From NCBI GenBank assembly GCA_014728035.1, contig WJMJ01000078.1:64001-128000 (forward strand): a stretch of DNA of 64,000 nt. Reading direction: 5' to 3'. A model generated the notes under the pieces. The model was not told where the DNA came from and searched no databases. It saw only the letters and a list, made by a program, of their open reading frames with translations. Positions within the stretch are counted from its first letter, which is position 1; each line of letters begins with the position of its first letter. Below are positions 33,872 to 38,568 of the stretch, in pieces. This DNA is from Promethearchaeota archaeon (GTDB lineage: Archaea; Asgardarchaeota; Thorarchaeia; Thorarchaeales; Thorarchaeaceae). The position numbers were made by a program, and so were the translations under genes.

Positions 33872-34819
33872 TTGATGGCTGAATCATATCTCCCAGAGGA
33901 TATCAATAGGTTTCAAATTATACTACTTCTAATTCTATCTGTTTCGATGGTTTCTAGTGCCAGTATTCTAATCCGGTTCAGCACGTCTAACCCATTGGTT
34001 ATCGTATTTTGGCGCACATTATTTGGGGGTGTTCTTATGGCAAGTGCGGGTTTGGCGCGAAATGACTTTAGAAAGAGTTATCCCATAGTCAGAAAAAGAT
34101 GGAAATGGCTGTTAGTAATTGGAGTGATTCTATCACTTCATTTTTCATTTTGGTTCACATCTCTGTTTCTAACAACAGTTGCTGCAAGTGTGGTGCTTGT
34201 AAATACATCACCTATTTTTACTGCCATACTCTCCACATTGGTTCTAAAAGAAGCACTAGGGACACGGTCATGGATTGGCGTAATAACTGCTGTAATTGGA
34301 TCAATTATCTTAGCTTTTACGGATCTAAATATAATAGGGATTGACGCATTATTTGGAGATATTCTAGCCTTGTTAGCGGGATTATTTCTTGCGTTATATT
34401 TCATTGGTGGCCGGAAATATGCCAAGGGATTACCAATCACTGTTTATACCTCAATAATATATTTCACAGCCGCCCTTGTGACCCTTGCAATATGTGTTTT
34501 TAATGGAGTAAATGTGCTAGTATTGGAATTTTCAGAATATCTGATATTCATCGCATTGGCAATATTCCCAACAGCATTAGGCCATTCAGTAAACAATTAT
34601 TTGCTTACATTAGTTCCAGCATATGTTGTATCATCCGCGGTACTTGGGGAACCAATCGGAGCTACTATTCTCGCCGCGGTTTTCCTTGGGGAAATACCTT
34701 CAACTGTAACGTTCATCGGATTTGGAATTATTCTGTTAGGTATTGCCCTGGTTCTGGTGGACATAGCCGCCAGAACACGAGGAAACAAATCATCCCTTGA
34801 TAACACCGATAGGTCTTAG
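33872..34819 (+). CDS. DMT/EamA-family transporter
   Basis: About 10 TMs; TSPIF...KE; EPIGA...GE. Confidence 0.9.
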   Translation: MMAESYLPEDINRFQIILLLILSVSMVSSASILIRFSTSNPLVIVFWRTLFGGVLMASAGLARNDFRKSYPIVRKRWKWLLVIGVILSLHFSFWFTSLFLTTVAASVVLVNTSPIFTAILSTLVLKEALGTRSWIGVITAVIGSIILAFTDLNIIGIDALFGDILALLAGLFLALYFIGGRKYAKGLPITVYTSIIYFTAALVTLAICVFNGVNVLVLEFSEYLIFIALAIFPTALGHSVNNYLLTLVPAYVVSSAVLGEPIGATILAAVFLGEIPSTVTFIGFGIILLGIALVLVDIAARTRGNKSSLDNTDRS

Positions 34820-36241
34820 TCGAACTGCAGTCGTTGCAATACCAAGGGCATCAGAAACTTTTACAACTTCATCAACATCCTTGTAAGCTCCTGGGGCTTC
34901 TTCAGCAATCACAACAGCTTTTGTGGATTTGACGATAATGCCATCACTTGCAAGGTCTTTTTGAACATCTTTGCCATAGAATTGTTTCTTAGCTCTTGTC
35001 CTACTCATGAGTCGTCCTGCTCCATGTGCTGTTGAACCAAATGTTAATTCCATACCTCTTGGGTTTCCAACCAATATGTAGGAGGCAGTACCCATTGTGC
35101 CAGGAATTAAAACGGGTTGTCCTATTTTCTTGTAAGCTGAAGGAGTTTCAGGATGTCCAGCTGGAAATGCACGGGTTGCACCTTTTCGATGGACAACTAC
35201 CTTGGTCTTTTTCCCTTCAATATCGTGTTCTTCGACCTTGCCCATATTGTGAGCAACATCATAAATCAGCTTCATATCGAGGTCTTCAGGAGATGAACCC
35301 ATAACTTTGGAAATTGCTTCTCTTGTCCAGTGCATCATAGTCTGTCTATTTGCCCAAGCATAATTAGCAGCTGCACTCATCGCAGCAAGGTAATCTTGTC
35401 CTTCTGAGGATGTGGTTGGAGCACTACATAACTCTCGTTCTGGAACCTGTATGTTATACTTTCTCATGGCTTTAGTCATAATCTTGATATAATCACTACA
35501 GACTTGGTGGCCTAGACCTCTTGAGCCACTATGAATCATAACAGTGACCTGACCCTCTCGTGTGATACCCATAGCTTTTGCTGCTGCTTCATCGTAAATC
35601 TTATCGACCAGTTGAAGCTCTAGAAAATGATTGCCCGACCCAAGGGTGCCTACCTGACTCATACCTCGTTTCTTTGCATGCTCAGATATTTTCGATGCGT
35701 CTGCAATCTCTAAGTTTCCTCGCCCTTCTGTATGATCAAGGTCTTCATCCCAACCATAACCATTTTCCACAGCCCATTTCGCCCCATTATTCAGAACATC
35801 TTCCACACCACGAAATCCTTGGAGACTGATTTTCCCAGAACGTCCGACACCTGTGGGTACATCGTTAAAGAGTCGATCGATTAATTCTCGTATTTTTGGC
35901 CGTACATCGGATTCGTCCATATTTGTTCGCAAAACACGAACTCCACAATTTATGTCATAGCCAACTCCACCAGGAGATATCACACCCGTTTCGTAATCAA
36001 GAGCTGCTACTCCACCAATTGGAAATCCATATCCTTGATGACCATCAGGTAGAACAATGCTGTGGGAATAGATGCCTGGAAGACATGCAACATTGGTTCC
36101 CTGTGTAAAGGTCTTATCTTGCTTCATTTTGCTAACTAGTGCGGCTGAAGCATGAACATGAACAGGTACATTCATGCATTTTTTAGTTCCTTTTGGAATC
36201 TCATAGATGTTTTCAGCTATCTTTTTGATTTCCACTATCAA
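34790..36241 (-). CDS. rtcB: RNA-splicing ligase RtcB
   Basis: PDGHQGYGFPIGG, GYDINCG, GTLGSGNHFLE, HSGSRG, HRKGAT, HGAGR. Confidence 0.97.
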   Translation of the reverse strand: MIVEIKKIAENIYEIPKGTKKCMNVPVHVHASAALVSKMKQDKTFTQGTNVACLPGIYSHSIVLPDGHQGYGFPIGGVAALDYETGVISPGGVGYDINCGVRVLRTNMDESDVRPKIRELIDRLFNDVPTGVGRSGKISLQGFRGVEDVLNNGAKWAVENGYGWDEDLDHTEGRGNLEIADASKISEHAKKRGMSQVGTLGSGNHFLELQLVDKIYDEAAAKAMGITREGQVTVMIHSGSRGLGHQVCSDYIKIMTKAMRKYNIQVPERELCSAPTTSSEGQDYLAAMSAAANYAWANRQTMMHWTREAISKVMGSSPEDLDMKLIYDVAHNMGKVEEHDIEGKKTKVVVHRKGATRAFPAGHPETPSAYKKIGQPVLIPGTMGTASYILVGNPRGMELTFGSTAHGAGRLMSRTRAKKQFYGKDVQKDLASDGIIVKSTKAVVIAEEAPGAYKDVDEVVKVSDALGIATTAVRLRPIGVIKG

Positions 36242-36385: not shown

Positions 36386-37420
36386 GTGCCTAAACCTCGG
36401 CTAACAACAATGGTAACTTCGCACGGATGAAGCTGTAAGGTCAAACAGGATGATCTAACAAGATTACTTCAACAAGCTGGATTGCTTCCAGAAGATAAGA
36501 CCTGTTCGGATCAAGTTGGAGATGATGCAGTCGCTCAGATCTTGAGTGATAATATTGCGGTAGTAGAGAATGTAGATGTCTTCACACCGATTCACGACGA
36601 CCCATATATCCAAGGTGAAATCGTTGCATGCAATGCCTCCAATGATGTATTCGCTATGGGTGTAACCACATTGGTTTCTCTTCAAGCCTTTCTAGCTTAT
36701 CCAAAGAGTATGGATGAAGAGGTGATTGTAGATGTGCTTCGTGGAATGAATGACTTCATGGAACGCCTGAATTCCAAAGTAACTGGTGGACAGACTATAA
36801 AGAATCCATGTCCAGTTTTTGGCGGTGTATGTTTAGGTGTTATACATCCAAAGGACATCATCTATTCAAAAGGAGCCCGTCATGGAGATATCATCCTCCT
36901 AACAAAACCTCTTGGAATTCAACCCGCAATGAGGTCATATCGTGACCTTCAAGATGAGAAGAGAACTAATCTTCTTGCGGAATTCGACGAAGAGGAGTTA
37001 TGCAAAATGCAGGAAACTGCTGTAAAAATTATGACTCAAAGCAATCTCGAAGTTGCTCGGGTTATGAGAAGCATTGGTGTTCATGCTGCGACAGATGTCA
37101 CTGGATTCGGTGTTTTGGGCCATGCCCAAAATGTCGCAACTCTCAGCGAAGTCCAAATAGAAATCGAAAGTTTGCCTGTTATCAAAGGAACCTTGGAACT
37201 CGCAGAATTCTTTGGACACAAACTTGCAGCAGGATTAGGTGCAGAAACAGCGGGAGGAATGCTGGTATTCTTACATCCTGAAAAAGTCGATGCATTTCGA
37301 TACGAGTTGCGTGAGTTTGGATTACCTTGTTGGCCTATTGGACACGTAACAAAAGATTCCGATGCACCTTCAGCTTCGTTGGCTGAAGGTATAGAGTTCA
37401 TAGAGACCGATTTCCCGTGA
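36386..37420 (+). CDS. selD: Selenophosphate synthetase, selenoprotein (Sec at UGA 36428-36430)
   Basis: In-frame upstream extension MPKPRLTTMVTSHG-UGA-SCKVK after a GGAGG SD; DDA, D.F.P, DVTGFG..GH, ETAGG. Confidence 0.93.
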
Positions 37421-37480
37421 ACATCACTTGAAACCTAAAGGGGAAGTGAGTGAGGATAGCCGAAGCAATCGGACGGTCTC
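37403..37480 (+). promoter_or_regulatory. Eukaryote-like SECIS element overlapping the selD stop codon
   Basis: GUGAA (37417-21) / UGAG (37451-54) core, helix ACATCACTT/AAGTGAGT, apical AAA plus mini-stem, outer helix GAGACCG/CGGTCTC. Confidence 0.75.
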
Positions 37481-37509
37481 ACTATTTTTTTCAATAGAAA
37501 ACACTGATA

Positions 37510-37674
37510 TCATTCTAAAAGATGATTGAGGCGATCAAAGATTTCTGTAATACCCTCTAGACTCTCCAAATCAATCTCGGGGTCCATAAACTTTCGTATT
37601 TCGATAAGCTCGTCGACGTTCTCTTCATGAAACAGCCAGAATTCTTGTTGGATTTGCTCTTTTGCTTTTGACAT
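37510..37674 (-). CDS. 54-aa acidic helical microprotein (below ORF-track cutoff)
   Basis: MSKAKEQIQQEFWLFHEENVDELIEIRKFMDPEIDLESLEGITEIFDRLNHLLE; fills the intergenic gap. Confidence 0.6.
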   Translation of the reverse strand: MSKAKEQIQQEFWLFHEENVDELIEIRKFMDPEIDLESLEGITEIFDRLNHLLE

Positions 37675-37710
37675 GACAAGTTCACTTCGTTTATATTATC
37701 TATCTAATAA

Positions 37711-37764
37711 TTCGTTATTTGTCGATATAACTTCTTTGGAGAATGTTGGTTCGTTATTTGTCGA
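37711..37764. repeat. Two identical 15-bp direct repeats in a divergent promoter region
   Basis: TTCGTTATTTGTCGA at 37711-37725 and 37750-37764. Confidence 0.8.
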
Positions 37765-37866
37765 ATTTTTACCGTTTTGGGTCTGCTTACCTTAGGTTTA
37801 ATACGATAAACATTAAATCACCATATCGTATAGAGAAATCAATACCTTCAGTGTAGGTGAAAGAAC

Positions 37867-38568
37867 ATGAAGATAGTCGTCACTGGGCCATACGAAGCTG
37901 GAAAGAGCAAAATGATTCACACCATAACAGACGGTGCGTGTATCAATATTGAACGAAGAGGAACTACTATTGCAATGGATCACGGTCTTGCTAACGTAGA
38001 TGGCATGAGTGTCTTTATGTTTGGTACTCCTGGACTTTTGCGGTTTCGTACAATGCGAAAAATACTAAGCTCGGGTGCAGATGGTATCATTTTTGTAGTA
38101 GACTCCGTGGACCCAGAGGCTGATGCTCGTGCACGTCTCTTTTTCCGTGAGATTGCCTTTTTCCTTCCAGGTGTTCCTTGTATTGTTGCTGCAAACAAGC
38201 AAGATGCTGAAGGTGCAAGACATGTCGATGAACTCCGAAAACGGATGAGTTTTCTAGCGGGTGTGCCTGTAATACCCTGTTCTGCAGAAACAGGTGAAAA
38301 TGTTGATCGTCTGTTACGAACATTGCTCTATCTAACAATGATGCAATGGAGTTCTGTATTTTCGAAATTTGCAGAATATAGTGGAAATGAACAAGGGCTT
38401 AGTAAGCTTATGGATGACCTTAGTCTGCCCAGAGACCAAGCTGTAGGTTATCTAAGACGTTTTGAACTTAGAAAATTGCTAGAAGTTGCCGTTGGAGATG
38501 AGAGCTTTCATGTCAAAAAGGAAATTCATCCCATATTGGAGAACCCAGTTCTTATTATGCGCCGCTAA
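37867..38568 (+). CDS. MglA/CvnD-like small GTPase with C-terminal winged helix
   Basis: GPYEAGKS, TTIAMDHG, FGTPGLLRF, NKQD, CSA; C-terminal HTH-like segment. Confidence 0.85.
   Translation: MKIVVTGPYEAGKSKMIHTITDGACINIERRGTTIAMDHGLANVDGMSVFMFGTPGLLRFRTMRKILSSGADGIIFVVDSVDPEADARARLFFREIAFFLPGVPCIVAANKQDAEGARHVDELRKRMSFLAGVPVIPCSAETGENVDRLLRTLLYLTMMQWSSVFSKFAEYSGNEQGLSKLMDDLSLPRDQAVGYLRRFELRKLLEVAVGDESFHVKKEIHPILENPVLIMRR

Follow-up and report, generated by a model that had tools for sequence, protein, structure and literature searches.

When a gene decodes one of its UGA codons as selenocysteine (Sec) and ends on another, the question arises of how the second one escapes recoding, above all when it lies inside the RNA structure that directs Sec insertion. 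This question was raised by a selD gene in a 64,000-nt stretch of DNA from a Promethearchaeota archaeon (the window; positions 64,001 to 128,000 of contig WJMJ01000078.1). A preliminary description of the sequence had proposed that the stop codon of selD is itself the UGA of a type II-like, eukaryote-type SECIS core, and this proposal was supported by 61 orthologs, by covariation and by a match with published elements (Huang, Xiao and Zhang, 2024). The 3′ end of the gene very probably carries a selD SECIS of the Asgard eukaryote-like type II class, in which the six final codons, stop included, are enclosed and which is melted at termination. Asgard SECIS elements are a proposed link between archaeal and eukaryotic Sec decoding, and the current picture of them is refined here, not changed.

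The selD gene and the structure at its 3′ end

The gene was identified as selD from its AIRS and AIRS_C domains (Pfam) together with an in-frame TGA. This UGA is codon 15 of SelD and lies about 990 nt upstream of the SECIS element. A tRNA-Sec gene with the anticodon TCA was present in the same genome (C151:74129-74219). The use of Sec in selD was supported by this tRNA gene and by the catalytic codon, which is TGA in each of the orthologs. Upstream of selD, a divergent gene for an RtcB tRNA-splicing ligase occupied 34790-36241 on the minus strand (Pfam E 1.4e-177). Downstream, a 54-aa minus-strand ORF without a Pfam match (37510-37674) ended 19 nt past a T7 tract; hence, selD and this ORF converge across a very short spacer.

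The features of the gene and of the element are given in Table 1. The SECIS starts 15 nt before the stop and overlaps the last six codons of selD including the stop. The C-terminal codons I-E-T-D-F-P and the stop codon supply the 5′ strand of the outer stem P1, the linker AUU, the canonical stem and the bulge. From the stop codon come the final base of the bulge and the two 5′ purines of the core, in which the tandem non-canonical pairs are G37419·A37453 and A37420·G37452. The preliminary description had placed the stop TGA in GTGAA (37417-21), facing TGAG (37451-54), and every coordinate and motif proved correct. The outer helix starting within the CDS and the side hairpin, which it had also named, were recovered base for base and are conserved.

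Table 1. Features of selD and of the predicted SECIS element, in window coordinates.
Feature	Position	Strand	Basis and remarks
selD (selenophosphate synthetase) CDS	36386..37420	+	Frame read; Pfam AIRS and AIRS_C; GTG start (alternative ATG 36410), stop TGA
In-frame UGA for Sec, motif HG-U-SCK	36428..36430	+	TGA in all orthologs examined, within Thorarchaeota and in the other Asgard families
Whole predicted SECIS element, three-way junction	37403..37480	+	Leave-one-out covariance model, RNAalifold consensus, pair counts
Outer stem P1, 5′ arm GAGACCG	37403..37409	+	Within CDS, codons E-T-D; partner 37474-80
Canonical stem of K-turn-like arm, 5′ strand UCC	37413..37415	+	In Phe-Pro codons; partner GGA 37454-56
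3-nt bulge C-G-U	37416..37418	+	Sequence; last bulge base is first stop-codon base
Stop codon UGA	37418..37420	+	G37419 and A37420 form 5′ half of G·A/A·G core
Helix II, 5′ arm	37421..37429	+	A37423 bulged; 8 bp with 37444-51
GAAA bulge (37430-33), mini-stem CC/GG (37434-35 with 37440-41), UAAA loop	37430..37441	+	Alignment, pair counts
Helix II, 3′ arm	37444..37451	+	Partner of 37421-29
3′ core half G37452 A37453, then canonical-stem 3′ strand GGA	37452..37456	+	Alignment
Side hairpin P3: CCGA (37460-63), loop AGCAA, UCGG (37469-72)	37460..37472	+	Pair counts; on 3′ strand, between K-turn-like arm and P1
Outer stem P1, 3′ arm CGGTCTC	37474..37480	+	Partner of 37403-09; pair counts
T7 tract	37485..37491	+	Sequence; likely archaeal transcription stop of selD; 4 nt past SECIS

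At the sequence level, the arm above P1 is a simple K-turn set in a three-way junction. It has a UCC/GGA stem, the C-G-U bulge on one strand, the GA/GA pairs and helix II. Judged from the sequence and its covariation, this order of parts appears to be that of the simple K-turns bound by the L7Ae family (box C/D, ribosomal Kt-7), in which a canonical stem is followed by a one-sided bulge of 3 nt, tandem G·A/A·G pairs and a second helix. The selD arm differs from them in that its canonical stem has just 3 bp and opens into the three-way junction. A kinked geometry of the arm is therefore a prediction from its motifs, as is its recognition by a K-turn-binding protein.

Conservation and covariation in the Thorarchaeota family

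The selD genes were gathered from 400 genomes of the phylum, and the 61 distinct orthologs from the family of the window (Thorarchaeota), in which selD identity was 60-76%, were all compared at their 3′ ends in a plain MAFFT alignment (A1). All 61 orthologs had the same layout, with the TGA stop 15 nt past a GAGACCG-like heptamer and all parts present. The structure of Table 1 had 90% of its cells paired in A1, as against 30-44% when the partners were slid. Double-sided changes occurred in 19 of the 25 pairs and were spread over several genera, and covariation was present in all five helices. The observed values were reached by none of 500 shuffles; because the orthologs are kin, these shuffle figures are not probabilities and overstate independence. 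Moreover, RNAalifold predicted P1, the canonical stem, helix II and the side hairpin when no structure was supplied. The window and its 60 orthologs together give a clean structure backed by covariation, with a K-turn-like arm, a three-way junction and a side hairpin.

The support was distributed over the parts of the element. P1 was paired in 99.8% of cells across the 61 sequences, and three of its pairs were doubly changed within the CDS, with variants such as GAGGCCG/CGGCCTC, GAGACTG/CAGTCTC and GAAACCG/CGGTTTC. The canonical stem was 98.9% paired and was replaced by UUC/GAA in one ortholog. All 8 aligned pairs of helix II were changed on both sides across the orthologs. The side hairpin P3 was 96.4% paired, with covariation in 5/5 pairs, and the mini-stem was 82% paired below an AAA that was almost invariant in A1. 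A variable core, or free use of TAA and TAG at this stop, had been named in the preliminary description as evidence against its proposal. The core 5′-GA...GA-3′ was kept in 59 of the 61 orthologs, the 3′ GA being replaced by AA in one and by UA in another, and GAGGA stood at the 3′ core and stem in most of them (a few variants, e.g., AAGGA and TAGGA). TGA was the stop codon in 61/61 family orthologs, as against about 29% of the long open frames in this genome.

The specificity of the element was evaluated via a leave-one-out covariance model of 60 orthologs from which the window was excluded. This model matched the window at 37400-37483 with 73.9 bits (E 3.6e-20), which was its sole match in 64 kb. 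The score and the single match indicate that the element is far more than chance. A model that included the window gave one strong match in the 4.3-Mb genome, at the selD site. The second-best match (C38:25999-26104; 19.6 bits, E 0.1) lay about 340 nt past a carboxyltransferase-like gene without a Sec codon and was taken as chance. A pattern scan of the window that allowed no bulge was discarded as a measure of specificity; it returned 5 matches without coding context and missed the real element, which has a bulged A. The euryarchaeal GAA_A pattern had no matches in 37388-38020 (-30 to +600 nt of the stop), with about 1 expected per 633 nt.

Single-sequence folding of the window gave a z of -1.67, and the minimum-energy fold differed from the conserved structure. 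It contained a 7-bp helix, GUGAGG/UCUCAC, followed by a U-run. This fold was rejected as the structure of the element; its three outer pairs were unpaired in 30-54 of the 61 orthologs. A 4-bp GAGG/YCUC alternative can be drawn in all of them, and this, like the preference of the minimum-energy fold, speaks against the conserved structure. Such a hairpin before a U-run, together with the T7 tract 3′ of the element, would fit a reading in which the hairpins are a mere transcription terminator or an mRNA-stability structure with no link to Sec. The T-tract had been noticed in the preliminary description as following the element, and it does so in the window. It is not part of the conserved element, however, as a T5+ tract within 60 nt was present in only 12 of the 61 orthologs and absent in 49. 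The terminator-like helix was likewise not conserved, the strong match of the covariance model in the genome was selD alone, and the element bears the SECIS signature of an invariant [A/G]UGA...GA core combined with unpaired adenines and a mini-stem. A terminator or stability structure is hence scarcely credible as the explanation, and from the same signature we infer that the conserved fold functions as a SECIS.

The assignment to a class was explored against the survey of more than 400 Asgard genomes by Huang, Xiao and Zhang (2024; PMC11227280). Their type II elements have a core 5′-GA...[G/A]A-3′, and the window has G37419 A37420 and G37452 A37453. Their upper stem has 7-15 bp, in which up to 2 mismatches and one indel are allowed; here it has 8 bp and one bulged A. 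For the mini-stem (2-8 bp), the bulge (4-12 nt) and the apical loop (2-6 nt), the window values were 2 bp (CC/GG), 6 nt (GAAA plus GG) and 4 nt (UAAA), respectively. The element starts 15 nt before the stop, which falls between -30 and +600 nt relative to the end of a Sec-UGA gene. For the selD of Thorarchaeia in particular, the type II signature given by these authors consists of a GUGA_GA core, [U/A][A/G]AA and a lower stem G[A/U]G_C[U/A]C (PMC11227280). GUGA at 37417-20, UGAA(A) at 37429-33 and GAG...CUC at the outer end of P1 reproduce this signature. Rfam scans of 2 kb and of 116 nt found no SECIS family at E<=10, the eukaryotic SECIS (RF00031) included; they returned chance microRNA and CRISPR-repeat matches only, far under threshold. 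The elements of Lokiarchaeota do not match the eukaryotic Rfam SECIS model either (Mariotti 2016, PMC4989117).

The stop codon within the element and its position in other Asgard selD genes

An RNA-level constraint acts on the synonymous sites at the 3′ end of selD. The entropy at third codon positions was 1.5-1.9 bits at codons -24 to -9 of the orthologs, and at the paired third positions it was 0.46 bits (codon -5), 0.56 bits (codon -4) and 0.12 bits (codon -2). At codons -3 and -1, where the third position is unpaired, its entropy was more than 1 bit. Of the 61 orthologs, 34 had A before TGA, 26 had G and one had C. That is, the final Pro codon ended on A or G in 60/61, which yields the [A/G]UGA of the SECIS consensus. 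The protein sequence was affected as well. The other Asgard SelD proteins end on ..IEV and those of Thorarchaeota on ..IET[DE]FP, the ends being equivalent at T. E-T-[DE]-F-P, the five C-terminal residues of SelD in Thorarchaeota (37403-37417 in the window), appear to be imposed by the RNA structure. RNA structure can, in such a case, set the last residues of a protein.

The sequence past the stop codon bears on whether this UGA is itself partly read as Sec, which would produce some SelD with Sec at the C-terminal end, followed by a short tail. The stop is a UGA in a Sec-decoding organism, and the extension in the window comprises just six residues, U-T-S-L-E-T, before TAA at 37436-38, exactly as the preliminary description had read it. 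Across the 61 orthologs, however, no conserved readthrough product was found; the next in-frame stop lay 0-76 codons downstream, with no pattern. The sequence past the UGA evolves as paired RNA and not as codons. Furthermore, the SECIS cannot fold with its own core in the ribosomal A site, an argument also made for the Lokiarchaeota elements (Mariotti 2016, PMC4989117). A C-terminal Sec at this position is accordingly very improbable.

The position of the stop was then compared in 29 selD loci from other Asgard families. The Thorarchaeota covariance model recovered only 7 of these 29 loci and was set aside in favor of an anchored parse, which handled 24. The 29 loci shared an architecture of lower stem, [A/G]UGA, helix II, adenines, mini-stem, GA and side hairpin. 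The U of the core lay -3, 1, 3, 6, 9-15 or 23 nt past the stop in the 24 parsed loci, and their stop codons were TAA in 15, TGA in 5 and TAG in 4. With one exception, the element in the other families follows a freely chosen stop by 1-23 nt, and the Thorarchaeota state looks like the extreme of a sliding series in the distance between stop and core. The exception was a locus of another family (L058) with the Thorarchaeota arrangement. A second locus of that family (L099) did not have it, so the overlap arose more than once. The recurrence of the overlap in Asgard selD, for which the preliminary description had called, therefore holds for all 61 Thorarchaeota orthologs; outside this family it holds for L058 alone among the 24 parsed loci.

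The series suggests a route by which the overlap may have come about. The element abuts the gene in all Asgard selD, and the reading frame may have run into it until the invariant UGA of the core stopped the frame. Once in use as a stop, the core UGA would be locked in place by both functions. In this natural series the stop moves from a place shortly ahead of the element to one within its core, and the series shows how near to a SECIS a UGA can come while still acting as a stop.

The side hairpin was also followed outside the family. A matching P3 hairpin with a similar G-N-R-A-containing loop was present 3′ of the core in the parsed non-Thorarchaeota Asgard selD (24/29). The loops were G-N-R-A-like, namely AGCAA, CGCAA, CGCGA, UGUGA and UAGCA (window 37460-37472; L040-L059, L091-L099). 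A hairpin of this type occurred in the parsed selD of every Asgard family sampled and was absent from the SECIS of a VhuU-like gene in this genome. Short and G+C-rich, P3 loosely resembles the upper stem in the euryarchaeal SECIS. The selD of Methanococcales was sought for this comparison, and the scan gave bacteria, haloarchaea and other Asgard lineages only. It is a long shot that the Asgard selD SECIS forms a distinct three-way-junction class in which P3 docks a selD-specific factor, and in which the Thorarchaeota stop makes the element ribosome-gated and tunes SelD to translation flux or selenium.

A separate feature was seen inside the selD genes of two other Asgard families. An in-frame insertion of 30 nt (L046:389-418; L047:1251-1280, minus strand; L050:1212-1241, minus strand; L051:383-412) lies between ..NDVY and A[IM]GG.... 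It is TAA-ended and mostly forms a perfect hairpin of 8-10 bp, the arms of which covary between the families. When precisely these 30 nt are taken out, the conserved DVY-AMG junction is restored. At least 9 genomes had a single in-frame TAA in selD. The insertion could be a mini-intron or an mRNA bypass element.

Decoding of the two UGA codons and relation to known systems

The two UGA codons of selD would be told apart by the state of the element. The folded element, with a presumed K-turn-binding protein and the Sec-specific elongation factor, would lead to Sec at UGA 36428-30. A ribosome at the end of the gene would already have unwound P1 and the 5′ strand of the K-turn. The UGA at 37418-20 would then meet a release factor and not Sec-tRNA, and would be read as a stop. 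The element would refold after termination. It is reasonable, as the preliminary description proposed, that the stop UGA escapes recoding in this manner, since the terminating ribosome must melt its own SECIS. This had already been argued in print (Mariotti 2016, PMC4989117). Many Lokiarchaeota stop codons are UGA and lie near the SECIS, and this proximity was argued there to preclude recoding.

The same melting could also be regulatory, as the preliminary description suggested. Terminating ribosomes would melt the SECIS, strip its factors and throttle Sec insertion at codon 15, giving a homeostatic feedback on SelD. Melting is unavoidable by geometry, as P1 and the 5′ strand of the K-turn coincide with codons -5 to the stop. 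The overlap is fixed in 61/61 family members and had a separate origin in one genome of another family (L058), and SelD, the maker of the selenium donor, is itself required for Sec synthesis. Against such a feedback, almost all other Asgard selD elements start 1-23 nt past the stop, where P1 would be melted too; hence, the Thorarchaeota overlap adds little. Control specific to selD is also made unlikely by the hydrogenase-related VhuU-like gene of this genome, which has no role in Sec synthesis and has the same overlap. Bacterial SECIS elements are unwound by each passing ribosome and just form again. Like the selD element, they lie in translated sequence and must refold; they differ in that they lie immediately 3′ of the Sec UGA and are bound by SelB directly, without a K-turn. 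On balance, a regulatory role of the overlap is unlikely, and a SECIS that is melted at termination and then refolds is preferred.

The preliminary description presented the overlap as new, which it is not. Elements with a GUGA_GA core in Thorarchaeia selD and the overlap of stop codons with AUGA have both been published (PMC11227280, PMC4989117), and the element belongs to the published eukaryote-like type II class. Eukaryote-like SECIS elements had been reported from Lokiarchaeota, where those of SPS/selD have a type II-like form of their own (Mariotti 2016, PMC4989117). Huang, Xiao and Zhang (2024; PMC11227280) started their search 30 nt upstream of the gene ends because the UGA stops of Lokiarchaeia 'often overlap' AUGA, and they named selD as a likely bridge between archaeal and eukaryotic Sec decoding. 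A universal stop overlap in Thorarchaeia selD is not stated in the main text of Huang 2024 or in the text of Mariotti 2016. The reading as a 3-bp stem with a 3-nt bulge, and the side hairpin, were likewise not found in the main texts of these two papers. The additions made here are the fixation across the family, the K-turn reading, the three-way junction and the constraint on synonymous sites, which are useful but incremental.

Among the known systems, the eukaryotic type II SECIS (SECIS_1, RF00031) shares the [A/G]UGA...GA core, the unpaired adenines over helix II, the mini-stem and the ability to act from the 3′ end of the mRNA on a distant codon. Compared with it, the selD element has an extra side hairpin and a shorter helix II (8 bp), the shortness being as the preliminary description had remarked. 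Its 3′ strand has no unpaired bases between the core and the stem below. Moreover, the selD element overlaps the CDS, whereas the eukaryotic type II SECIS lies well inside the 3′ UTR. SBP2 was not detected in Lokiarchaeota. The euryarchaeal SECIS, which has a GAA_A bulge (Methanococcales, Methanopyrus), is similar in its 3′ location near the stop.

The closest published precedent for the arrangement is VhuU.1 of Lokiarchaeota, in which the AUGA motif doubles as the stop codon (Mariotti 2016, PMC4989117). The likeness consists in the core UGA serving as the stop and in the SECIS overlapping the CDS. The VhuU.1 element is of type I (9-bp stem, 11-nt loop), belongs to a hydrogenase gene and was reported as a single case, whereas the selD element is of type II and is fixed across a whole family. 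This precedent recurs in the present genome. A gene for a VhuU-like small selenoprotein was found at L109:2710-2862 (region 2710-2960; G000 contig C46, about 35308-35560), with the motif RCYDC-U-LSCGAH. Its Sec TGA (L109:2776-78) lies about 80 nt upstream of the SECIS core. The gene ends on GGA-TGA, which provides the AUGA (L109:2859-62) of a SECIS-like hairpin of type I; its 9-bp stem carries a loop that begins with GAAAG, and GA follows.
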